Shown piece after piece: positions 26,732 to 57,532 of a stretch of DNA of 64,000 bases. Location: positions 70 to 64,069 of the forward strand of contig CAYOKJ010000002.1 of NCBI GenBank assembly GCA_964404485.1, in the 5' to 3' direction. The stretch is from an uncultured Bacteroidales bacterium (GTDB lineage: Bacteria; Bacteroidota; Bacteroidia; Bacteroidales; JAIORY01). Each line of letters begins with the position of its first letter. Within the stretch, counting starts at the first letter, position 1. A program made the translations under genes and the position numbers. Under the pieces are notes generated by a model that saw nothing but the letters and a program-made list of their open reading frames with translations, had not been told where the DNA came from and made no database searches.

Positions 26732-28477
26732 ATGGACAAGCGTTGGGTAATAAAAAAACAAGCTGATAAAAAGGCTGCTGATAAACTTGCCCAAGAGCTG
26801 AAAATATCATATAATTTAGCAAATTTACTAGTTCAGCGCGACGTTAATACATATAGCGAGGCTAGAGCTTTTTTCCGTCCTGAACTTTCTCAACTTCACG
26901 ATCCCTTTCTGATGAAAGATATGGACAAGGCAATCATCAGAATGGAGAAAGCCATCCAAAATAATGAAAAAATTCTTATTTATGGCGATTACGACGTTGA
27001 TGGTACTACAGCCGTTTCTCTTGTTTATACTTTTCTTAAGAAATTTTACAAAGAAATAGATTTTTATATTCCTGATAGATATGGCGAAGGATATGGAATT
27101 TCTACCCGTGGAATTGATTTTGCTTCTGAAAATAATTTTGCTCTCGTTATTGCTCTTGATTGTGGAATTAAAGCTGTTGAAAAAATTGAATATGCGAAAT
27201 CAAAAAATGTTGATTTTATTATTTGTGACCATCATCGCCCCGGAGATACAATTCCTGACGCAAGTGCTGTTTTAGACTCAAAAAGATTAGATTGCAATTA
27301 TCCTTACAAAGAATTATCCGGTTGTGGAGTTGGCTTTAAACTTATTCAGGCATATCAACAAAAAAATGATTTTCCATTTTATGAACTTGAGGAATATCTT
27401 GATCTTGTTGCTGTGAGCATCGCTTCCGATATTGTTGCTATTACCGGAGAAAATAGAATACTGGCACATTTTGGATTAATCCGTATAAATACTAATCCAA
27501 GGCCGGGTATAGAAGCAATTTTACGATATAGTAATATCAGACGAAAACCTTTCAGAAATTTATATAAAAAAAATATTTTTTCAATAGAGCTTACCATTAG
27601 CGATTTAGTGTTTTTGATCGGACCACGAATTAATGCTGCAGGAAGAATAAAAAGTGCAAAAAATTCTGTTGAATTACTTGTTTCAGAAGGCATGAAATAT
27701 GCACAATTACTAAGCGAACAAATAAATGTTTTAAATACTGAGCGTCGTATTCTTGACCATCAAATAACAATTGAAGCTCTTCAAATGATTAAGGATGACG
27801 AGAAACTATTAAAATGTAAAAGCACTGTTGTTTTCAATGAAAACTGGCACAAAGGTGTAATCGGAATTGTAGCTTCTAGGCTAACAGAAACCTATTACCG
27901 TCCAACAATTGTTCTTACAAAATCTGATGGTTTAATAACCGGTTCTGCCCGCTCAGTCAAAAACTTTGACGTTTATAACGCAATAGAATCGTGTCGTGAT
28001 TTGTTGGAGCATTTCGGCGGTCATAAATACGCTGCCGGACTTTCTTTAAAACCAGAAAACCTGGATGCTTTTACAAAGAAATTTAATAAAATAGTTGATT
28101 CAACGATTGAGGAGGAAATGCTTATTCCTGAAATAGAAATTGATTCGAAAATTAGTCTGAACGAAATAAACAATAAATTTTTTAGAATACTTCGGCAGTT
28201 TTCTCCTTTTGGTCCTGGAAATATGGCTCCGATTTTTCTTACCGAAAATGTTGTTGATACAGGAGAAGCTCGCATTGTTGGTAAAAATCATTTAAAACTA
28301 AGTATTGTTCACCCCGATATTACCAGTTTACCAATATCTGCAATTGCTTTTCAGCAAGGACATCAAATTACTAATGTGAAAAAAAATATCCCTCTGAATA
28401 TATGTTACCATATTGAAGAAAACGAGTGGAATAATAATATATCGCTACAGCTTAATATTAAAGATATAAAACAATAA
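26732..28477 (+). CDS. recJ: Single-stranded-DNA-specific exonuclease RecJ
   Basis: DHH motifs (YGDYDVDGTT, LDCG, ICDHHRPGD) and DHHA1 (GGHKYAAG). Confidence 0.9.
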   Translation: MDKRWVIKKQADKKAADKLAQELKISYNLANLLVQRDVNTYSEARAFFRPELSQLHDPFLMKDMDKAIIRMEKAIQNNEKILIYGDYDVDGTTAVSLVYTFLKKFYKEIDFYIPDRYGEGYGISTRGIDFASENNFALVIALDCGIKAVEKIEYAKSKNVDFIICDHHRPGDTIPDASAVLDSKRLDCNYPYKELSGCGVGFKLIQAYQQKNDFPFYELEEYLDLVAVSIASDIVAITGENRILAHFGLIRINTNPRPGIEAILRYSNIRRKPFRNLYKKNIFSIELTISDLVFLIGPRINAAGRIKSAKNSVELLVSEGMKYAQLLSEQINVLNTERRILDHQITIEALQMIKDDEKLLKCKSTVVFNENWHKGVIGIVASRLTETYYRPTIVLTKSDGLITGSARSVKNFDVYNAIESCRDLLEHFGGHKYAAGLSLKPENLDAFTKKFNKIVDSTIEEEMLIPEIEIDSKISLNEINNKFFRILRQFSPFGPGNMAPIFLTENVVDTGEARIVGKNHLKLSIVHPDITSLPISAIAFQQGHQITNVKKNIPLNICYHIEENEWNNNISLQLNIKDIKQ

Positions 28478-32126: not shown

Positions 32127-32852
32127 ATGCTTCACAAAACCCGTGGAATAGTTTTACATCAAATTAATTATTCTGAAACCAGTGTAATTGCTAAGATTTA
32201 TACTGAGCAATTTGGATTGCAATCATACATTATCAGAGGGGTTAGAAAAGCTAAATCCAAAATTAAGAGAAATTTATTACAGCATCTTTCGCCCGTTGAT
32301 ATGATTGTTTATCATAAGGAAAAAAGTAACATTCAAAATATTAAAGAGATAAAAGTAGATTTTCAATTGCAAAGCATTCCTTTTGAAATTACAAAAGGAT
32401 CAATAGCAATTTTTATTAATGAAATTTTATACAAATCGGTAAAAGAAGAAGAAGCTAATCCAAATCTTTTTGAGTTTATTTTTAATTCTGTTAAACTTCT
32501 GGATGAAACAAAAGACAAATACATAAATTTCCATTTGTTGTTTATGATACATCTTACAAAATTCCTTGGCTTTTTTCCAAGAGGGAATTATTCGCCTGTA
32601 AAAACATTTTTTGATATGGAGGAAGGTGTATTTTGTGGTAGTAAACCCTTACACGGAAATTATATTAAGGAACCCATAAGCAGGAAATTTTTCGATTTGC
32701 TGAAAACAGAATTACCTGATCACGCTTCTGTATGCCTCAACCAAAAAGAAAGGCAAGATATTCTTCAAAAGCTAATTGATTATTATTGTCTTCATCTTCC
32801 TGTTTTTAAGGGAATAAAATCACATCATATTTTAAGGGAGGTTTTGGAGTGA
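32127..32852 (+). CDS. recO: DNA repair protein RecO
   Basis: The N-terminal OB-fold region HKTRGIVLHQINYSETSVIAKIYTEQFGLQSY and the length of about 240 aa are typical. Confidence 0.75.
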   Translation: MLHKTRGIVLHQINYSETSVIAKIYTEQFGLQSYIIRGVRKAKSKIKRNLLQHLSPVDMIVYHKEKSNIQNIKEIKVDFQLQSIPFEITKGSIAIFINEILYKSVKEEEANPNLFEFIFNSVKLLDETKDKYINFHLLFMIHLTKFLGFFPRGNYSPVKTFFDMEEGVFCGSKPLHGNYIKEPISRKFFDLLKTELPDHASVCLNQKERQDILQKLIDYYCLHLPVFKGIKSHHILREVLE

Positions 32853-33202
32853 AAGGAGTTATTAATTTTAGTTTTTGGGAAAAGGCAGTAGATGATTTTT
32901 CTACATTTTACATCGAAATCGTAACTCTAAAATCACAAATCTAAAATTTTAAATCAACTTGCTTGTTATATATTTTTTATATATGTTTGTAACTTAATGT
33001 GAAGAAAATAAAAAAGTAAGCTTATTTACTCATATTGAAAAAATAAACGTAAGAGTAACTTTAGTTGGATGTTACCCACAAGCTGAAACCCCACAGCATA
33101 TTTTACACATTTGGTTTTTGCCGACACACTATTCAACCCTGAAAAAACCAAAAGAGTAAAATTCTCCCGACCTTCTTATAGATTTATATATTAAATAATA
33201 AT

Positions 33203-33253
33203 ATACAATTGTATTGTTTGTAAATATTTTAATATATCTTTGCTCTTTACAAA
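33203..33253 (+). promoter_or_regulatory. Candidate operator sites around the promoter of the XRE operon
   Basis: Perfect 12-bp palindrome ATACAATTGTAT (33203-33214). The inverted pair TTTGTAAA (33217-33224) / TTTACAAA (33246-33253) brackets the -7 box. Confidence 0.4.
33235..33242 (+). promoter_or_regulatory. -7 promoter box (TAnnTTTG) of the XRE / PHP-ATPase / AlbA_2 operon
   Basis: TATCTTTG lies 30 nt upstream of the ATG at 33272. Confidence 0.5.
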
Positions 33254-33271
33254 TTTATATCAAAGTCTAAA

Positions 33272-33490
33272 ATGGACTCTATGAATAGGATTAAAATAGT
33301 TTTAAAAGAACAAGGACGAACCCAGACTTGGTTAGCTGAAAAAATTGGAAAAAGTTTTGTTGTTGTGACCAACTATTGTAACAATAACTCCCAGCCAAGT
33401 ATTCAGGTTTTGACTAATATATCTAAAATTTTAGATGTTGATGTCCGAGAATTACTCGTTTCCACAAAAAACAATTTAAAAAATGGATAA
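33272..33490 (+). CDS. XRE/Cro-type helix-turn-helix transcriptional regulator (72 aa)
   Basis: RIKIVLKEQGRTQTWLAEKIGKSFVVVTNYCNNNSQPSIQVLTNISKILDVDVRELL is a canonical HTH_3 layout. Its stop overlaps the next start by 8 nt (ATGGATAA). Confidence 0.85.
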   Translation: MDSMNRIKIVLKEQGRTQTWLAEKIGKSFVVVTNYCNNNSQPSIQVLTNISKILDVDVRELLVSTKNNLKNG

Positions 33491-36125
33491 ACATCTAAAC
33501 ATATTCAAAAATGGAAGTTTTTGGCTAAGAGCCGATTTCCATTTACACACAAAAGCGGATAAAGAGTTTATTTATATTGGTGAAGAAAATTCCTTTATTT
33601 CATCTTATGTTGACAAGCTTGATGAGGAAAAAATCAAAGTTGCATTCATAACAAATCACAATAAATTTGATATAAATGAATATACAGCTTTATCAAAAAA
33701 GGCACTTAAGAAGGAAATATATATAATACCGGGAGTTGAACTTTCTGTAAATGACGGAGCAAATGGTATTCACTGTTTGGTAATTTTTAACCCAACAGAA
33801 TGGTTAGAAAATAATACGGATTTTATTAACCAATTTTTAACTCAAACATTTGCAGGAAAAGCAAATTACGAAAATGAAAATGGAAGGTCAAATGATAATT
33901 TAATTGAAACAATAAAAAAATTAGATGCATTTGAAAAAGACTATTTTATAATTATGGCTCACATTGAACAAACAAGTGGTTTTTTCAATGAATTTAACGG
34001 AGGAAGAATAGAAGAATTAGGGAAACAACCATTATTCCGAAAATCAGTATTAGGCTTTCAAAAAGTGCGGACACGTGATTATATAAAAAATCTCAAATTA
34101 TGGTTAGGGAATGAATTGCCAGCATTTGTTGAAGGTTCAGACCCTAAAAAGATTGATGAAATTGGGAAAGGCGAACCAACGTTTTTAAAACTTGGAGCAT
34201 ATAATTTCGAAGCAATAAAATATGCTTTGTTGGATAAGAATTTTCGTCAATCAAAATTATTAAAAAACCCAACTAATGGATATATAAAATCTATTAGTTT
34301 CAAAGGTGGTAAATTGGATGAAAATACTGTGTATTTGAATCATTCAATGAATAATTTGATAGGAATAAGAGGTAGTGGAAAATCTTCAATTTTAGAAGCC
34401 ATTCGGTACGCCTTAGATATAAGTTTAACAAAAGACCAGAATGTTGATTTTGAATATAAAAATAATTTGGTAAATGCACTTTTAAGTAGTGGTGGAAAGA
34501 TTACTTGTGTTTTGGTTGATGACCAGGGCAATGAATATAAAACAGAAAAAATATTAGGAGACAGAACAAACATATACAAAGATAATGAACTTCAATTAGG
34601 CTTAAAACCTAATGCCATTGTTAAAAAACCAATATACTTTGGGCAAAAAGACCTTTCACAAATTGGAGATTCATTATCAACAGAATACTTAATAAGCAAA
34701 CTCATAGGAGACCGATTAATAAATAAAAAACGAGAAATTGAAAACAAGAATCAAATCATCCTAAACTTATTGAATGAAATTAAAAGGGTTGATGCCAACT
34801 TAGATACTAAATCTGCATATGAAGAAAGATTGGCAGAGTTAAAATTAAAAATTCAAGTTTTTAAAGACAATGAAATTGACAAAAAACTAGAAAAACAAAT
34901 TGCCTTTGATAAAGACATAAACTTTATTAAACGAGTTGACAAATTCGAGGTTAAAATCATTGATGCTTTAGATGAATTTATTCAAGAATATGATGATGGA
35001 TTTGACAACTTTAAAACGTACGTATCTAAAGAAAATATAACGGATATAGAAAAAGTTTCTCAATCGTTAATCTCTTTTGAAAAAATATTTGATGATTTAA
35101 GAAACATCATAATTTCACTTATTACTAAAAATAAAGAACTCACAGAAACCCAAAAAGGTTTTACAAACAAATACAATGAATTAAAAGAAGAGTTTTCAAA
35201 CATTAAAAGAGACATAAAACTTCCAAATATTCAAGCAGATGACTATGTAAAATACACTAAAGAACTCGATTTAACGAAAGCACAACTTTCTGAACTAGAG
35301 AAGCTTTCCAAAAAGAAAAATGAATTACAGACTCAGCTTGAACAATCATTAGTTTCTCTTCAAGGATTATGGCATAACGAATTTGAAATCATTCAGGATG
35401 AAATTAGAAAGGTTAATTATGGTCAACCTCTTGTTGTTATAAATGGACAAGAGATTCCCGTAATCAAGATAAAAGTTGATTTCAAAAAAAATACAGATAA
35501 TTTTAAATCATATTTAAAAGAAAATCTCAGGGGGAGCAATCTTAGGGATAATAATATTCAAACTATAATTGATAACTATTCTGATTTAATTAGCGTCTTC
35601 AATGATTTCTCAATTGAAAATAGCAATATTCAAAATAGTTTATCAGAAACACAACTTCATACCTTTAAGGAGTATTTCAAATCTAATATTGGAGCCTTTT
35701 TAACCTATCGAATTCCTGATAAGTTCGAAATCATATACAGAGGACGCCCTCTAAACGTACATTCACTAGGACAAAGAGCATCAGCTTTAATTATTTTCTT
35801 GCTCACTTTGAAAGATAGTGACTTAATTATTATTGACCAACCAGAAGATGATTTGGATAACCAAACTATTTACAATGATGTTATCAAAGTCTTAAAAGAG
35901 TTAAAGAATACGTCACAGTTTATCTTTGCCACACACAACCCAAACATTCCTGTTTTGGGAGACTGTGAGCAAATCATCTCTTGTAAATATCACTCCAATT
36001 CAATTCAAACTGATTTAGGAAGTATTGATGATGAAACAATACGAAAAAAGATTGTGAATATTATGGAAGGTGGAGAAGAAGCATTTAATAATAGAAAAAT
36101 AATTTACGAATTATGGAAGCATTAG
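33483..36125 (+). CDS. PHP-family phosphoesterase fused to an SMC/Rad50/SbcC-like ABC ATPase with a long coiled-coil insert (Ppl-like candidate defence protein)
   Basis: PHP ligand candidates H20-x-H22 (ADFHLHT), H59 (ITNHN), E86 (GVELS), H97 and H160. Walker A GIRGSGK300SS. About 350 aa of heptad-rich K/E/L sequence. Signature-like S761-LGQR, Walker B LIIID785QPE788DDLD, and H-loop FATHN. Confidence 0.7.
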   Translation: MDKHLNIFKNGSFWLRADFHLHTKADKEFIYIGEENSFISSYVDKLDEEKIKVAFITNHNKFDINEYTALSKKALKKEIYIIPGVELSVNDGANGIHCLVIFNPTEWLENNTDFINQFLTQTFAGKANYENENGRSNDNLIETIKKLDAFEKDYFIIMAHIEQTSGFFNEFNGGRIEELGKQPLFRKSVLGFQKVRTRDYIKNLKLWLGNELPAFVEGSDPKKIDEIGKGEPTFLKLGAYNFEAIKYALLDKNFRQSKLLKNPTNGYIKSISFKGGKLDENTVYLNHSMNNLIGIRGSGKSSILEAIRYALDISLTKDQNVDFEYKNNLVNALLSSGGKITCVLVDDQGNEYKTEKILGDRTNIYKDNELQLGLKPNAIVKKPIYFGQKDLSQIGDSLSTEYLISKLIGDRLINKKREIENKNQIILNLLNEIKRVDANLDTKSAYEERLAELKLKIQVFKDNEIDKKLEKQIAFDKDINFIKRVDKFEVKIIDALDEFIQEYDDGFDNFKTYVSKENITDIEKVSQSLISFEKIFDDLRNIIISLITKNKELTETQKGFTNKYNELKEEFSNIKRDIKLPNIQADDYVKYTKELDLTKAQLSELEKLSKKKNELQTQLEQSLVSLQGLWHNEFEIIQDEIRKVNYGQPLVVINGQEIPVIKIKVDFKKNTDNFKSYLKENLRGSNLRDNNIQTIIDNYSDLISVFNDFSIENSNIQNSLSETQLHTFKEYFKSNIGAFLTYRIPDKFEIIYRGRPLNVHSLGQRASALIIFLLTLKDSDLIIIDQPEDDLDNQTIYNDVIKVLKELKNTSQFIFATHNPNIPVLGDCEQIISCKYHSNSIQTDLGSIDDETIRKKIVNIMEGGEEAFNNRKIIYELWKH

Positions 36126-37270
36126 AATTATTAGACTTAATACATAAAGGAGAATCCAGTGAAGTTCAATTTAAGATACGGGTCAATGATGCGTATAAAA
36201 CAGGAACTGAAATGGTTGCATTTTCAAATACAAAAGGAGGATTATTAATAATCGGAATTGATGATAAAACTGGAGATATAAATGGATTATCTTACGAAGA
36301 ACTTCAGGAAACTAATCAATTATTAGCAAATGCAGCATCAGATAATGTTAAACCTCCCATTTACATTTATACCGAGACAGTTGAAATAAGTGACAAAAAA
36401 GTAGTCGTTGCTCGAATTTCAGAAGGAATTAGTAAACCTCACACGGATAACAAAGGTATTATTTGGGTTAAGAATGGTTCTGACAAAAGAAAAGTTGTTG
36501 CTAGAGAAGAAATGGCAAGGCTATTACAAAGTAGTGGTAATTTATTTGCTGATGAAACAATAGTTAATGGTACCACTATAAACGATATTAATGAAGATTT
36601 TTTTAAAAACTTTATAAAATCAAAAACCAAGAAGTCTATTGATGAATTAGGACTGTCCATTTCGGGAATGTTGTCGAATATGGGAATGCTCAAAGATGGA
36701 AATTTATCTCTTGGGGGGTTACTTCTATTTGGGAAAAACCCGCAACAATATAGACCTGCTTTCACAATACAATGTGTGTCAATTGCTGGGAATGATATTA
36801 GTTCAAATGATTACAGAGATAAAGAAGACCCATTTATAGGAAACCTTCAAGAGCTTTATGATAAAACCCTTTCTTTTATTACCCGAAACTTAAAGAAAAT
36901 ACAAAAAGAAGAAAGTTTTAATTCACCATCAGTTCTCGAATTACCAATTGAAACTATTGAGGAACTCCTTGTTAATGCTTTGGTTCATAGAGATTATTTC
37001 ATTCTTTCAAGCATTAAGGTTTTTATTTTCGACAATCGGGTAGAAATAATAAGCCCCGGAATATTACCTAATACATTGACAATTGAGAATATTAAAGTTG
37101 GCACCTCAATTCAGAGAAACCCAATGTTATATTCAAACTCAAGATATGTTCTTCCATTTTTTGGTGTTGGTAGCGGAATACCCAGAGCATATGAAAATGT
37201 ACCGGATTTAGAATTAATTAATGATATTGATAGAGAACTCTTTATTTCAATAATCAAACGGAATAGTTAA
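36113..37270 (+). CDS. AlbA_2 (Schlafen-like 'divergent AAA') plus HATPase_c_4 domain protein (COG2865-like), lacking a C-terminal wHTH
   Basis: N-terminus GESSEVQFKIRVND...EMVAFSNTKGGLLIIGIDDKTGDINGL fits AlbA_2. C-terminus ELLVNALVHRDYF...RVEIISPGILPN...SIQRNPML...GVGSGIPR fits HATPase_c_4. The start overlaps the upstream stop by 13 nt. Confidence 0.7.
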   Translation: MEALELLDLIHKGESSEVQFKIRVNDAYKTGTEMVAFSNTKGGLLIIGIDDKTGDINGLSYEELQETNQLLANAASDNVKPPIYIYTETVEISDKKVVVARISEGISKPHTDNKGIIWVKNGSDKRKVVAREEMARLLQSSGNLFADETIVNGTTINDINEDFFKNFIKSKTKKSIDELGLSISGMLSNMGMLKDGNLSLGGLLLFGKNPQQYRPAFTIQCVSIAGNDISSNDYRDKEDPFIGNLQELYDKTLSFITRNLKKIQKEESFNSPSVLELPIETIEELLVNALVHRDYFILSSIKVFIFDNRVEIISPGILPNTLTIENIKVGTSIQRNPMLYSNSRYVLPFFGVGSGIPRAYENVPDLELINDIDRELFISIIKRNS

Positions 37271-37579
37271 AAAATGAAACCAACACCAAAAGCCATACAC
37301 ATTGTCAAGTCGCTCGAAAAAGCCAACCGCACTTGCCAAAACTTGTCAATAAGTATGGCTTTGCTAACCACACGAAAAAAAACAGCCAGTGGGTAACAAA
37401 ACCTATACGTAATGCGAGGTTCAGAACTAAATTGAAAGATTATGCAAGCACTGAAATATCGTCATAAAAATATAGTGAAGTGCTTCGGAAACCCGCACTA
37501 CGCATAGCCAAATCATTTGCATATTAATATATTATCTTCTTCCATCTTTACATTTATCATTATTATAAAGAAATAAGAA

Positions 37580-37612
37580 AAATCCTCCAGATTTTTAAAA
37601 TCTGGAGGATTT
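37580..37612. terminator. Perfect bidirectional hairpin terminator about 310 nt downstream of the AlbA_2 gene
   Basis: AAATCCTCCAGATTTT / AAAATCTGGAGGATTT is a perfect inverted repeat flanked by A/T runs. Confidence 0.6.
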
Positions 37613-37651
37613 GCCGAAATAACAAATTTTTCATTTCAAAAAATATTCTTA

Positions 37652-37668
37652 GAATCTGTGGCAATTTT
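37652..37668. repeat. Solo copy of the GAATCTGTGGCAATTTT REP-like motif
   Basis: The 16-mer AATCTGTGGCAATTTT is identical to the right arm at 47470-47485. Related motifs occur at 513-532, 1097-1114 and 54607-54620. Confidence 0.6.
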
Positions 37669-37902
37669 AAAATTTATACTTTCTCTCCAAAAAGAAGAAT
37701 AAAATTTTCTTTCACTAAACATTTCAATTAATTAATATTAATTCATCACTAATGACATTTTGTAAGGTGCAGACAGTAAGGTTAATGAACAGTTTGTTGT
37801 AAAAAAAGCCAAGGTATAACTTTATAAAAGAACAATATATTAAAGTAATACGTTTAAAAAAATTCATTGTTTCCCAAATGGTAATGGCAGACATTCGAGA
37901 AT

Positions 37903-38064
37903 AATGGCAGATATTATTATTGAATCAATTTTTAATAAAGATATATTTACTTGGAATAACTCAAATATGGTGAAACCGGATAAAATACGAAAAAACTATA
38001 TTGTTGCAATTAAAGAGGCTGATAATGGAAATATTAACCCATTGATAGAATTTGCAAGAAATTG
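37903..38064 (+). pseudogene. Short remnant resembling the C-terminal tail of a Fic/DOC-family protein
   Basis: My translation is MADIIIESIFNKDIFTWNNSNMVKPDKIRKNYIVAIKEADNGNINPLIEFARN*. The R..Y..A...AD.G....L..F pattern is the usual end of Fic-type proteins. No Fic core (HPFxxGNGR) lies upstream. TAATGGCAGA is duplicated at 37881 and 37901. Confidence 0.35.
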
Positions 38065-38133
38065 AAAACGTATTAAAAAGAGGAAAATGAATTTCTGTAA
38101 AAAGTAAAATATCGGCTAATCTATTATAAAGTC

Positions 38134-38817
38134 TTATTTTAAACTTTGATTAAACAATCTAAAAAAATTCTCTTTCACCAAGTTTTTCACCTCCCCAAAA
38201 TCAAGTTTTTCACCAAGTTCTTTTTCCATAGAAGTCACACCTTTATCTGTAAAACCGCAAGGATTTATATAATTATAATAATTAAGATCTGTGTTTACAT
38301 TAAATGCAAACCCATGCATTGTAATCCACCTGCTTGCTTTTACACCGATAGCACATATCTTTCGTGCTTTAAGTTTATTGTGGGTGTCAATCCAAACTCC
38401 TGTAGCTCCTTCAAGGCGTTCAGCATTTATATTATAATTTTTTAAAGTCAGAATAATTACTTCTTCAAGTTGAAAAATATATTTTTTAACTCCCAACGAA
38501 AAAGCCTCAAGATTGATAATTGGATAACCAACAATTTGTCCCGGTCCGTGATAAGTAATATCTCCCCCTCTGTTTATTTTAAAAAACGAAACACCTTTTT
38601 TTTGTAATTCAAAATTGTTTAATAAAAGATTATTTTCCGACCCACTTTTGCCAATTGTATAAACATTAGAATGTTCGCAAAACAATAAATAATTTGGAAT
38701 TTCTTTGTTCTGACTTTTCAACTCCAGAGATTCCTTAAACAGTTTTTCCTGAAAATCCCATGCTTTTTTATATTCGATCAAGCCAAGATCCATGAATATT
38801 ATTTCTTTATTTCTCAT
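38134..38817 (-). CDS. lipB: Lipoyl(octanoyl) transferase
   Basis: NRGGDITYHGPGQIVGYPI and KICAIGVKASRWITMHGFAFNV are catalytic-region motifs. Confidence 0.9.
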   Translation of the reverse strand: MRNKEIIFMDLGLIEYKKAWDFQEKLFKESLELKSQNKEIPNYLLFCEHSNVYTIGKSGSENNLLLNNFELQKKGVSFFKINRGGDITYHGPGQIVGYPIINLEAFSLGVKKYIFQLEEVIILTLKNYNINAERLEGATGVWIDTHNKLKARKICAIGVKASRWITMHGFAFNVNTDLNYYNYINPCGFTDKGVTSMEKELGEKLDFGEVKNLVKENFFRLFNQSLK

Positions 38818-54890: not shown

Positions 54891-55135
54891 GAAACCCAGT
54901 TACATAAAACAAACTGATTAGAAAATTGCAAAATCGAATAGACAAAATATTAGCACTGATTGAAACTTACTGCAAGAAAAAATTAGTTTTTGCCGACCCG
55001 CTTTTGCCCTTCGGGACAATTAGGGAAGCCTGCCCACAAATAGCACATTTGTTTTTTGCCAACGCTAAAATCCAAACGCAAAAAAACAAAAGAGCTATTT
55101 CTTTCCATCACACAATAAATATGTACTTTTAGAGC

Positions 55136-57532
55136 ATGGTAAAGAAACTTATAATCATAAACCAAGATAGTGAAGCGGATACATGCAGAAAAGAAGTAAC
55201 ACCAAAGCTTTATCATGCTAATTGGAGTGATGAACAAATATTAGAACAAAGAACTTTTACCGATGGAAAAATAGTTGTACTTGGAAGAAAAGCGAGACGA
55301 AAAAAGGGAAAAAGAGCTGATTATATTCTTAGATACAAAACAGATTATCCGATTGCTGTAATTGAAGCAAAAAAGAAATATACCAAAGCAGCCGATGGAC
55401 TACAACAAGCTAAAGATTATGCTGAAATTTTGGGATTAAACTTTGCTTATGCATCAAATGGTGTTGAAATTATTGAATATGATTTTACAACAGGATTAGA
55501 AAGTAAAATAATTAACTTCCCTACACCCGAAGAACTCTGGAAAAGAGAATCAATAAAAGAAAATATTGATGAATCAATACAAGAAACTTTATTAAAACCA
55601 TTTCATTCTTTTGCAAGTAAAAAGCCAAGATATTATCAAACAATTGCAATTAACAGAGCAGTTAAAAAGATTTTAGAAGGCAAAAAAAGATTGTTATTAA
55701 CAATGGCAACAGGGACAGGAAAAACAACTGTTTCATTTCAAATTATTTATAAATTATGGAATAATCGATGGAATCAAAGAAATGACCATCGCAGACCTAA
55801 AATATTATTTATTGCAGACCGAAGCATATTAGTTAATGACCCTCATTCAAAGGATTTTGCAATATTTGGCGATGCAAGATGTTTAGTCCCTGACGAAGGG
55901 ATTGTAACAAGTCGTGAGATATATTTTTCAACTTATCAATCACTTGCTGAATATGAAAGTAAAGAAGGAAATTTTAGGAAATTTCCAAGAGACTTTTTCG
56001 ATATGATTATAATTGATGAGTGTCATAGAGGAAGTGCATCTGATGAAAGCAATTGGAGGAAAATTTTAGACTATTTTACAGAATCAGTTCACTTGGGATT
56101 AACAGCAACGCCACTTAGAGAAGATAATAGAGACACCTACGAATATTTCGGAAATCCGATTTACACATACAGTTTAAAACAAGGAATTGATGACGGATTT
56201 CTTGCTCCTTACATTGTTCACCGAATTGTAACCGAAGCTGATGCAACCGGATGGCGACCAGAAAAAGGACAAGTTGATGCACGAGGAAATGAAATTGCAG
56301 ACGGAATTTACACAACAACTGATTTTGAAAGAACATTATCCTTACTTCCGCGAACAAAAGCGGTTGCCAAACACTTGGCAGATTACATGACTAAAAATGG
56401 CAGATACAGCAAAACAATTGTTTTTTGCGTTGATCAGGAACATGCCGACCATATGCGAAGGGAGTTAAACAACTTAAATTCAGATATTACAAAAGATTAT
56501 CCAAATTACATTGTTCGCATTGTTTCAGAGGAAGGAGACGTAGGAAAAGGTCATTTGAGTGATTTTATGGATATTGACGAGGAATTTCCTGTAATTGTTA
56601 CAACTTCAAAGCTTTTGAGTACTGGAGTATATATTCCAACTTGTGCAAATATAGTTTTATTCAGAAACATAAATTCAATGACTGAATTTAAACAGATTAT
56701 TGGTCGTGGCACAAGAGTAAGAGAAGATAAAGGAAAACTATTTTTTACAATTTTAGATTATACAGGTAGTGCATCAAGAAATTTTGTTGACCCTGATTTT
56801 GATGGTGAACCACCATTGATTACAAATGAAGAAATTGACGAACAAGGACAAACCATTGAAGGTACTTTTGAGGAAGAAATAAACGAAACCGAAGAAATTG
56901 ACAATTGGGATGAACCTACAGAAACAGATTTTGAGAATATTCCAGATAATGAAGAAAACGACAGACCTCGTAAATATTATGTAGAAGAAGGAATCCTGTC
57001 AATTGTTGCTGAAACAGTTCAGATTTTAGATAGTCAGGGGAAACTACAGACAATCCAATATAGAAAATACACTAAAGACAAAATCTCAAATCTTTACCCA
57101 TCAGCAAATGAGTTTAAAAAAGCGTGGTTAGATTTAAACATTAGAAGGAACATAATTTCACAACTTGAAGAACAAGGCATTTTAATTGAAGATTTGAAAA
57201 AAATCACAAAACTTGTTGATGTTGACGCCTTTGATTTATTGCGTTATGTGGCTTTCGATTTGAAACCTTTAACCAGAAAACAACGAGCTAATTTACTTTT
57301 AAAAAATAAAGCTGATTTATTTTCTGAATATTCCGAAGGTGCAAGAGAAATTATCGAAATCATTATCTCAAAATATGTTGATTTTGGCATAGACCAGTTG
57401 AAACCTGAAATTATTCAGGTAGAACCAATTTCAAGCAAGGGAAATATTTTGGAAATTGCCGACAGATTTGGAGGGATTGACAAATTCAAAACACTAATAA
57501 ACGAATTACAAAAACAATTATACGCAGCGTAA
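55136..57532 (+). CDS. hsdR: Type I restriction enzyme R subunit (EcoEI/EcoAI-like, with an EcoEI_R_C-type C-terminal domain)
   Basis: N-terminal PD-(D/E)xK motif (RADYIL...VIEAKK), SF2 motor motifs MATGTGKT and IIDECHRGSA, TATP, QIIGRGTR, and C-terminal LLRYVAFD... Confidence 0.9.
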   Translation: MVKKLIIINQDSEADTCRKEVTPKLYHANWSDEQILEQRTFTDGKIVVLGRKARRKKGKRADYILRYKTDYPIAVIEAKKKYTKAADGLQQAKDYAEILGLNFAYASNGVEIIEYDFTTGLESKIINFPTPEELWKRESIKENIDESIQETLLKPFHSFASKKPRYYQTIAINRAVKKILEGKKRLLLTMATGTGKTTVSFQIIYKLWNNRWNQRNDHRRPKILFIADRSILVNDPHSKDFAIFGDARCLVPDEGIVTSREIYFSTYQSLAEYESKEGNFRKFPRDFFDMIIIDECHRGSASDESNWRKILDYFTESVHLGLTATPLREDNRDTYEYFGNPIYTYSLKQGIDDGFLAPYIVHRIVTEADATGWRPEKGQVDARGNEIADGIYTTTDFERTLSLLPRTKAVAKHLADYMTKNGRYSKTIVFCVDQEHADHMRRELNNLNSDITKDYPNYIVRIVSEEGDVGKGHLSDFMDIDEEFPVIVTTSKLLSTGVYIPTCANIVLFRNINSMTEFKQIIGRGTRVREDKGKLFFTILDYTGSASRNFVDPDFDGEPPLITNEEIDEQGQTIEGTFEEEINETEEIDNWDEPTETDFENIPDNEENDRPRKYYVEEGILSIVAETVQILDSQGKLQTIQYRKYTKDKISNLYPSANEFKKAWLDLNIRRNIISQLEEQGILIEDLKKITKLVDVDAFDLLRYVAFDLKPLTRKQRANLLLKNKADLFSEYSEGAREIIEIIISKYVDFGIDQLKPEIIQVEPISSKGNILEIADRFGGIDKFKTLINELQKQLYAA

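Follow-up and report, generated by a model that had tools for sequence, protein, structure and literature searches.

Two described systems stand closest to the locus analysed here. One of them is Ppl, which was reportedly described by Rousset et al. in 2022 as a single-gene anti-phage system of E. coli. According to PMC12904381, Ppl is a PHP-domain exonuclease that degrades single-stranded DNA in the 3'-5' direction and is kept inactive by nucleoside triphosphates (NTPs) on its PHP and NTPase domains; according to the same paper, it is switched on by depletion of NTPs together with 3'-OH ends from phage homing endonucleases. Inhibition of Ppl by NTPs is also mentioned in PMC13434339, which cites Xu et al., Mol Cell 2026. 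The other system is the Temperature Restricting Locus (Trl, or TRL operon) of Photorhabdus laumondii, which has the gene order trlR-trlF-trlG (Hapeshi et al., 2020, PMC7554251). Here we describe a trlRFG cassette from a 64,000-nucleotide stretch of DNA of an uncultured Bacteroidales bacterium (assembly GCA_964404485.1, contig CAYOKJ010000002.1, positions 70 to 64,069), which is referred to as a whole as the window. On the basis of homology to Ppl and of genomic context, we hypothesise, with a probability of roughly 0.6, that the cassette is a mobile module acting against phage or other mobile genetic elements (MGEs), that it works in a Ppl-like manner with TrlG as co-effector or regulator, and that its function probably includes an abortive, growth-arrest component.

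In Photorhabdus, trlR encodes a putative transcription factor of 79 residues, trlF is annotated as a histidinol phosphatase, and TrlG has an AlbA_2 domain at residues 14–128 and a HATPase_c_4 domain at residues 298–365 (PMC7554251). P. laumondii can grow at 36–37 °C once the operon has been deleted or trlG has mutated spontaneously. The operon is induced on a temperature up-shift, when growth is arrested in a trlG-dependent manner, and its deletion is tolerated. The virulence of a trlG point mutant differs from that of the whole-operon deletion, and the distribution of the locus is patchy, with 21 of 46 Photorhabdus genomes and 12 of 1218 V. cholerae genomes carrying it (all from PMC7554251).

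Compared by way of this published description, the cassette in the window is very similar: the genes have the same order and encode a small helix-turn-helix (HTH) regulator, a 'histidinol phosphatase' of about 880 residues, and an AlbA_2 plus HATPase_c_4 protein of about 385 residues. The boundaries of the two TrlG domains, which are 14–128 and 300–367 in the window, are almost the same as in Photorhabdus. There are also differences. Photorhabdus belongs to the Gammaproteobacteria, whereas the window cassette is in Bacteroidota, in a low-GC genome of Flavobacteriia-like character, and bears conserved boundary elements that are common to other defence cassettes. Heat-induced growth arrest through TrlG is a phenotype recorded in P. 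laumondii only.

The assignment of the central protein is clear. It matches the NCBIfam equivalog model NF045780, 'TrlF family AAA-like ATPase', with 513.2 bits against a cutoff of 350 (E = 2.2e-153), over model positions 1–943 of 944, and falls below the cutoffs of the sister models Ppl_antiphage NF042955 (170.5 against 1000) and Spaf_1101 (174 against 475). Close homologues from Tamlana, Arenibacter, Flavobacterium and Myroides, with 70–79% identity, are already named TrlF family by NCBI. The window protein is a member of TrlF, a family that is already catalogued and is sister to the anti-phage protein Ppl, and the fusion of a PHP domain to an SMC-like ATPase is not new. Three features led to rejection of the old annotation as a metabolic histidinol phosphatase: the mobile context, the partner gene, and the SMC-like ATPase in the same chain. 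The family is large: when 1.84 billion cluster representatives were scanned exhaustively with HMMER, there were 6660 matches at E ≤ 1e-3, and 452 TrlF-family representatives of clusters at 50% identity at E ≤ 1e-30, with near whole-query coverage among the full-length matches listed.

Despite failing the Ppl equivalog cutoff, TrlF is, as judged by alignment, a full-length homologue of Ppl. Profile-sequence comparison using hhalign with Ppl from an E. coli plasmid (WP_015059139.1) gave a probability of 100% (E = 3.4e-49) over 815 columns at 19% identity, and the PADLOC model for Ppl matches the window TrlF partially, in two stretches (3e-35). Both proteins have, from end to end and in the same order, a PHP domain, a Walker A lobe, a coiled coil and a C-terminal lobe. 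They share the motifs DFHxH, (D/N)HN, PGVE, H97, AH160 and GSD220 (numbered as in TrlF), Walker A and the H-loop, together with the unusual Walker B sequence DQPEDDLD and a C-terminal MEGGxxAFxxR. The differences are that overall identity is about 19–21%; that the last PHP motif is GSDAHH in Ppl but GSDPK in the window TrlF, a phage-borne TrlF having retained DAH; and that Ppl acts alone, whereas the window TrlF has a conserved Schlafen plus GHKL partner and an XRE regulator.

The fold of TrlF was analysed by structure prediction. An earlier note on this stretch, made from its letters alone, had picked out an open reading frame (ORF) of 880 codons at 33483–36125 and read it as a PHP nuclease or phosphatase fused to an SbcCD-like ATPase. 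The reading frame is confirmed, and each motif cited is at the residue given: ADFHLHT at 17–23 (H20, H22), ITNHN at 56–60 (H59), GVEL at 84–87 (E86), H97, MAHI at 158–161 (H160), GIRGSGKSS at 294–302 (K300), SLGQR at 761–765, IIIDQPEDD at 782–790 (D785, E788) and FATHN at 815–819. The structure prediction and Foldseek search that the note had suggested returned what it anticipated, namely a PHP fold, an ABC (ATP-binding cassette) head and a coiled coil. For the N-terminus, the AlphaFold2 model of residues 1–266 alone has a predicted local distance difference test score (pLDDT) of 92.6 and a predicted template modelling score (pTM) of 0.91, and all 28 of its Foldseek matches in the PDB at E ≤ 0.001 are PHP phosphoesterases, RNase AM, PHP domains of Pol III alpha/PolC, or histidinol phosphatase (3e38, E = 1.9e-8; PHP domain of RNase AM, template modelling (TM) score 0.64). 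The Pfam PHP model (PF02811) scores 18.3 bits on the window TrlF, below its gathering score of 26.4; among 55 TrlF homologues it matches 25 (E ≤ 0.01, best 4.4e-7), and AAA_21 and SMC_N match 55 and 52, respectively. In the single window sequence, Pfam identifies AAA_21 (1.2e-8), SMC_N (9.5e-8) and AAA_23.

The AlphaFold2 model of the whole protein, generated using a 55-sequence alignment, has a mean pLDDT of 83.9 and a pTM of 0.65. It consists of an alternating β/α region at residues 13–255, an ATPase N-lobe at 267–392, two long helices (397–511 and 519–646) connected by a turn at 512–518, and an α/β C-lobe at 650–860, to which residues 650–745 belong. The two ATPase halves model as one split SMC/Rad50-type ABC head, which superposes on Smc, MukB, JetC, RecN and Rad50, and the head / coiled-coil / head topology proposed in the earlier note holds. 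In a Foldseek search of the PDB the whole model finds only SMC-class heads with coils, the best listed being Pyrococcus Smc (1.2e-11), with other matches to MukB, JetC, condensin and cohesin heads, RecN, RecF and LmuB of Lamassu; the TM score for Rad50 is up to 0.61, normalised to human Rad50. Comparison of the TrlF family profile with PDB sequences leads to SMC6 (6e-15), followed by SMC3, Smc, Rad50 and AriA, and the same search made using the single protein sequence gives marginal SMC/ABC matches only. No structure of Ppl or TrlF was found, by sequence or by fold, in the copy of the PDB that was searched. As for the central region, it is an antiparallel coiled coil, as had been proposed, but it is about 250 residues long (397–646) by AlphaFold2 and the heptad test, and not about 350. 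The hydrophobic power at period 3.5 was reached by 8 of 2000 shuffled sequences for one arm and by none of 2000 for the other.

The resemblance to SbcCD needs qualification. In common with the SMC-class complexes (Rad50, RecN, RecF, MukB, JetC of Wadjet, and LmuB of Lamassu), TrlF has an ABC head whose two lobes are separated by an antiparallel coiled coil, and its Walker A, Q-loop, signature, Walker B Asp and H-loop are all present. In common with SbcCD/Mre11-Rad50, it has a nuclease attached to an SMC-class head. However, the nuclease is a PHP domain in cis and not a calcineurin-type Mre11/SbcD subunit, and the coil is short, at about 115–128 residues per arm. There is no CxxC zinc hook, with no Cys at all at the coil apex (residues ~505–525), and no hinge, and no metallophosphatase match to Pfam was found in the neighbouring trl genes, those for the XRE and Schlafen plus GHKL proteins. 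The likeness in head, coil and nuclease that the earlier note drew is therefore an analogy only, and membership of the SbcCD group is contradicted by the missing hook, by the missing Mre11/SbcD partner and by the Gln that follows the Walker B Asp.

Conservation was measured in an alignment of 81 TrlF-family representatives drawn from the HMMER scan, with 25–53% identity to the query. The residues H97, H160, G294, G297, K300, Q388, S761, G763, D785, Q786, P787, E788 and H818 are invariant, and D18, H20, H22, E86 and D220 are each kept in 80 of the 81 sequences, so that selection and not chance accounts for the motifs. The canonical set of PHP metal ligands is HxH, H, E, H, H and DxH; the candidate ligands in TrlF, assigned by motif order as H20/H22, H59, E86, H97, H160 and D220, are present in 72–81 sequences. 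The last canonical PHP His is replaced by Lys222 in the window protein, and by Lys in 67 of the 81. A further conserved motif, M-E862-G-G-x-x-A-F-x-x-R871, is found close to the C-terminus, in the C-lobe.

The Walker B motif is the most unusual feature of the ATPase. It reads D-Q-P-E (residues 785–788, window 35835–35846), with Gln in place of the usual catalytic Glu, in contrast to the SMC/Rad50 class. This Gln is present throughout the family alignment, and in E. coli Ppl as well, and judging from the motif TrlF would amount to a natural 'E-to-Q' ABC ATPase. In other ABC ATPases, the E-to-Q change traps the nucleotide-bound state. The site therefore looks better suited to binding of nucleotide than to fast hydrolysis, which would fit a sensing role rather than that of a motor.

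The coordinates of the cassette are collected in Table 1. The stop and start codons of its genes overlap, implying that trlF is translationally coupled to trlR upstream and to trlG downstream. The earlier note had treated TrlF as a single-chain system under XRE control. The upstream XRE gene is indeed there, but the protein does not stand alone, since trlG is in the same operon; this partner gene had not been noticed. To see how general the arrangement is, one genome per species was scanned, giving 33 full-length TrlF loci, in which trlG was sought using tblastn. It lies immediately downstream of trlF in 29 of the 33, starting about 10 nt before the trlF stop, and such loci span Nitrospirota, Ca. 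Brocadia, Nitrospinota, Desulfobacula and a Bacteroidales metagenome-assembled genome (MAG) from a ruminant. The four loci that lack trlG are at about 40% identity. The regulator is less widespread: in 19 Bacteroidota loci of the scan, and also in Arenibacter, a trlR orthologue with 76–91% identity immediately precedes trlF, and among the 33 loci a recognisable TrlR is found in the Bacteroidota clade only.

Table 1. Features of the trl cassette, of the domains of TrlF, and of the second L-element region (positions in the window).
Feature	Position	Strand	Description and evidence
5' boundary 'L' element	33070..33172	+	GCCRAC-type repeats; hairpin CACATTTGGTTTTT (33106-33119)/AAAAACCAAAAGAG (33143-33156); nhmmer E=2.9e-17
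Candidate Bacteroidota-type promoter upstream of trlR	33214..33242	+	TTTG...TAtcTTTG; conserved in an 18-region upstream alignment of Bacteroidota trl cassettes
trlR	33272..33490	+	72-residue XRE/Cro-type HTH regulator; Pfam HTH_3 2.2e-10; 3' end overlaps trlF start by 8 nt
trlF	33483..36125	+	880 residues, ATG start; NCBIfam NF045780 513 bits, residues 10-875
TrlF PHP domain, residues 10-260	33510..34262	+	D18, H20, H22, H59, E86, H97, H160, D220; AlphaFold2 and Foldseek
TrlF ABC-head N-lobe, residues 267-396	34281..34670	+	Walker A G294-S301, Q-loop Q388; Pfam SMC_N/AAA_23, invariant columns
TrlF antiparallel coiled coil, residues 397-646	34671..35420	+	Arms 397-511 and 519-646; AlphaFold2, heptad test, Foldseek
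TrlF ABC-head C-lobe, residues 647-880	35421..36122	+	S761-x-G-Q signature, Walker B D785-Q-P-E788, D-loop DDLD, H-loop H818; Pfam AAA_21
trlG	36113..37270	+	385 residues; SLFN_AlbA_2 (PF04326) 14-128, 2.8e-22; HATPase_c_4 (PF13749) 300-367, 3.6e-12; overlaps trlF end by 13 nt
3' boundary 'R' element	37270..37520	+	Hairpin with 22-nt arms, 37289-37310/37341-37362; GTGGGTAACA (37389-37398) is the inverse of TGTTACCCAC (33070-33079)
Type I restriction-modification operon behind second L element	55136-57532 (hsdR)		hsdR, then hsdM, rhuM, hsdS

The two domains of TrlG are those of a known effector. The combination of AlbA_2 and PF13749 has been named the 'Schlatpase' supradomain, the tRNA-cleaving effector of SLFN-pAgo defence, in which the SLFN nuclease motif is E-x4-(D/E)-x-K and the change D32A abolishes cleavage by RzAgo (bioRxiv 10.64898/2026.05.29.728809). 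TrlG has both Pfam domains, PF04326 and PF13749, and the PADLOC pAgo model matches its N-terminal module (3e-15). It differs in being a stand-alone protein paired with TrlF and not with Argonaute, and in its motif, E14-x4-Q19-x-K21 (in full G-E14-S-S-x-V-Q19-F-K21). In an alignment of 15 TrlG orthologues (42–100% identity, including the copy on an E. coli plasmid), Gln is at the (D/E) position in all 15. The orthologues retain the Schlafen box VAFSN at 35–39, the GHKL motif E283/E284-x3-N288 and the glycine boxes. These motifs suggest a non-canonical or inactive RNase site, and on the motif alignment an active RNase in the Schlafen domain is doubtful; TrlG probably binds ATP and oligomerises. 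A literature search gave no paper joining Schlafen, PHP and phage.

The genomic contexts of TrlF point to mobility. In Arenibacter algicola the trl trio is inside an integrative and conjugative element (ICE) with TraG, TraM, DUF4138 and IS21, adjoining an HD-CE/HATPase_c_3 gene. On the E. coli IncC plasmid LC744502 (L049, 147573–151357), trlF-trlG separates hsdR from hsdS in a type I restriction-modification (R-M) operon, which is followed by an anticodon nuclease gene; trlG is annotated there as 'transcriptional regulator'. From translations read by eye, trl is flanked by a mod-like methylase and a res-like helicase in L033 (an apparent type III R-M system), precedes a res-like helicase in L026, and follows JetC/JetD-like genes in L038. 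In the Yersinia phage vB_YenM_42.18 (L045, 8621–11239), an 872-residue 'chromosome partition protein' passes the TrlF model with 465 bits. It is a solo TrlF with gpA and gpQ of this P2-like phage on either side, an interval known as a defence hotspot in phages of the group. Further solo proteins that pass the model come from IncF plasmids and from a 'Listeria phage' contig of wastewater origin. In PLSDB, 1169 plasmid records have a TrlF match, and 836 of these are predicted to be conjugative. In L047, the TrlF locus adjoins toxin-antitoxin (TA) genes. The range of these settings, from an ICE and R-M operons to plasmids and phage, is that of a mobile accessory module rather than a repair gene. 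A match on a Y. ruckeri plasmid was considered as a TRL trio and rejected, being a solo TrlF beside an Abi gene. It was also observed that a near-identical solo-TrlF locus is present in L034, L035 and L039, which are filed under Dasania (Gammaproteobacteria) and under MAGs of Chloroflexi and Dehalococcoidia, and that a Bacteroidota-type trl cassette with 72% identity is on a 4.3-kb contig of an 'Izemoplasmatales' MAG (L021); mis-binning or very recent transfer is the likely origin of both.

The Bacteroidota trl cassettes have defined ends. By blastn, homology among them starts at about 33080–33106 and stops at about 37368–37509, taking in around 190 nt upstream of trlR and 100–240 nt downstream of trlG. 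It opens at a CGTT core, CGTT(R)(Y/K)(R), and closes at ...AAACGTT. The 5' end corresponds to the L element and the 3' end to the R element of Table 1. Arms of the R-element hairpin vary between loci by paired changes, the downstream part also has L-like motifs, and weaker L-like nhmmer matches occur at the position equivalent to R in L009 and L036. Between the L element and trlR, the segment at 33214–33242 resembles the Bacteroidota promoter consensus, TTTG/TAnnTTTG. A scan for sigma-70 promoters and terminators gave counts within the range of shuffled controls, and Rfam gave no match at E ≤ 1 on 32500–38300. Two variations in the layout were seen: in L008, right-end sequence is directly upstream of the left element, and in L016, L022 and L036 it is shifted by about 3 kb by extra cargo.

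The L element is not confined to trl. A second copy in the window, at 55022–55113 (HMM E = 4e-17), is directly 5' of a type I R-M operon, and an exact-pattern scan of public metagenomes found the element at at least 118 loci (L058–L175), in nearly all of which a large same-strand ORF begins 80–250 nt downstream. Clustering of the 181 cargo proteins examined gave 116 groups. Representative cargo includes type I, ISP, IIG and III R-M proteins, a type II methyltransferase, JetC of Wadjet, Avs2 and PDC-M16A, as well as a GajB-like helicase, a subtilase, Hsp70-like and TPR proteins, and a PLD-SNF2 protein. Presence of the L element 5' of many defence systems is separate evidence that trlRFG belongs with defence cargo. 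Two or three L copies occur in 17 sources, always in direct orientation and 2.3–7.3 kb apart, sometimes as arrays. This organisation recalls that of integron cassettes. An attC site is defined by paired R''/R' cores, RYYYAAC/GTTRRRY, and an integron array has an IntI integrase. The boundary core often departs from GTTRRRY. No recurring family of recombinase was found upstream of L elements, where 86 ORFs of at least 200 residues included one tyrosine-recombinase-like pair, and a literature search on integrons and attC in Bacteroidota defence found no description of the boundary element.

On the basis of the similarity to Ppl and of these contexts, we hypothesise that TrlF would be a nucleotide-gated nuclease that senses DNA ends or DNA structure. 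NTP at the Walker A/DQPE site would hold it off. A fall in NTP, together with free 3' ends on foreign DNA as it invades or replicates, would then allow the PHP domain to degrade the DNA 3'-5'. Targeting of foreign DNA, which the earlier note had suggested, is plausible in view of the homology and the context. TrlR would repress the operon. TrlG would be the second component, acting either as a growth-arresting effector or as an ATP-dependent, nucleic-acid-binding regulator that gates TrlF. The role of executor of growth arrest is favoured by the Photorhabdus suppressors, which are in trlG and not in the larger trlF, and the role of gate is favoured by the Q19 motif and by the self-sufficiency of solo TrlF and Ppl proteins.

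Several observations weigh against this proposal. The only recorded phenotype is temperature restriction in Photorhabdus, and not phage defence by TrlF or TrlFG, and PADLOC has no model for a TrlFG system, giving only partial matches to Ppl and PDC-M49A. Among 29 Photorhabdus suppressor mutants none was in trlF, while 19 had single-nucleotide changes and one an insertion sequence in trlG (PMC7554251), implying either that TrlF is dispensable for the temperature toxicity or that its loss is not tolerated. Failure at the Ppl cutoff (170 against 1000 bits), together with the ability of Ppl to work alone, means that the mechanism of TrlF may differ. The Lys at the last canonical PHP His means that nuclease activity of TrlF is not assured. 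The cassette of the window sits beside recJ (26732–28477) and recO (32127–32852), and no empty site was found: all 13 contigs examined that have an identical RecO carry the cassette, as does every contig examined with an identical TrlF.

The same observations supply the alternatives. If TrlG were the sole effector, as an RNA or tRNA nuclease or through some other form of growth arrest, TrlF would be purely its sensor or restrainer, the SMC-like part detecting DNA ends and switching TrlG on; the PHP domain would not degrade invader DNA, and might instead be a phosphatase or act on a signal in the form of a nucleotide or DNA end. The Photorhabdus genetics fit well here, with temperature-tolerant mutations in trlG and none in the larger gene, and with the different virulence of point mutant and deletion. 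Schlafen domains combined with varied sensors are tRNase effectors in SLFN-pAgo and Cash systems, and the GHKL motif and glycine boxes of TrlG are intact. We nevertheless regard this as rather improbable, given that Q19 replaces, in every orthologue aligned, the (D/E) of active SLFN domains; that solo TrlF proteins in a P2-like phage, in E. coli IncF plasmids and in several genomes imply that TrlF can be self-sufficient, like Ppl; and that the PHP metal ligands are nearly invariant in the family. The position beside recJ and recO would be in line instead with a housekeeping role in DNA repair, with TrlF as a fused functional analogue of SbcCD/Mre11-Rad50 for hairpins and double-strand ends. 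The topology and the structural matches, which include Rad50, RecN and RecF among the best, are consistent with such a role, and the PHP domains of Pol III alpha and of PolX serve as exonucleases in proofreading or end processing. However, the recO and lipB flanks occur in none of the other loci examined, and indeed none of the window flanks recJ, porZ, recO, lipB, lipA and lysS is shared by them. The cassette brings along conserved ends and a candidate promoter, is found in an ICE, R-M operons, plasmids and phage, and has a patchy distribution, and the protein has no zinc hook and no Mre11/SbcD partner, its partner gene being of Schlafen type. A repair function is very unlikely.

A further explanation is addiction or growth control: the locus would be a selfish module, resembling TA systems or a 'temperature restriction' switch, that stabilises its carrier DNA or regulates growth of the host. 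Induction of the Photorhabdus operon on up-shift, with arrest of growth and tolerance of deletion, could be read in this way, as could the preponderance of plasmids predicted to be conjugative and the TA neighbours in L047. Abortive-infection systems, however, usually show growth arrest on stress as a side-phenotype too, anti-phage activity is proven for the homologue Ppl, and embedding in R-M operons, the P2 hotspot and a cassette framework common to a dozen known defence systems all point to defence. We consider the addiction module unlikely, and prefer the defence module outlined above.

It is worth adding what is and is not new. Proteins that fuse PHP and SMC-like domains have already been named as a family, with members in the thousands and, in Ppl, one relative whose mechanism has been studied; the window adds a member to this family. 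The more novel threads are the pairing of TrlF with TrlG, with two non-canonical catalytic motifs, and the shared boundary element. Together they join temperature restriction in Photorhabdus, defence by Ppl, and Schlafen plus GHKL effectors, and suggest that temperature restriction is self-toxicity of a defence module. The invariant DQPE and the E-x4-Q-x-K motif are testable predictions on nucleotide sensing as opposed to hydrolysis, and the boundary element could help to find new defence genes in Bacteroidota and to show how they move. As a more tentative proposal, it is possible that TrlFG is a distinct two-protein immune system, in which a nuclease-ATPase resembling Ppl, with NTP levels and DNA ends as its signals, would be combined with a non-canonical Schlafen plus GHKL protein, and which would ride on a cassette platform (5' and 3' elements of ~100 and ~250 nt, CGTT core, direct orientation) that spreads at least a dozen kinds of defence among Bacteroidota.

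Beyond the 3' end of the cassette, two minor features were noted. A perfect 16-bp palindrome at 37580–37612 (AAATCCTCCAGATTTT / AAAATCTGGAGGATTT), 310 nt downstream of trlG, is terminator-like on the minus strand only. Between the cassette and lipB there is a 53-residue ORF (37904–38065), which looked similar to the C-terminus of Fic and was rejected as such, having no Pfam match; it is a called gene in several metagenome assemblies.

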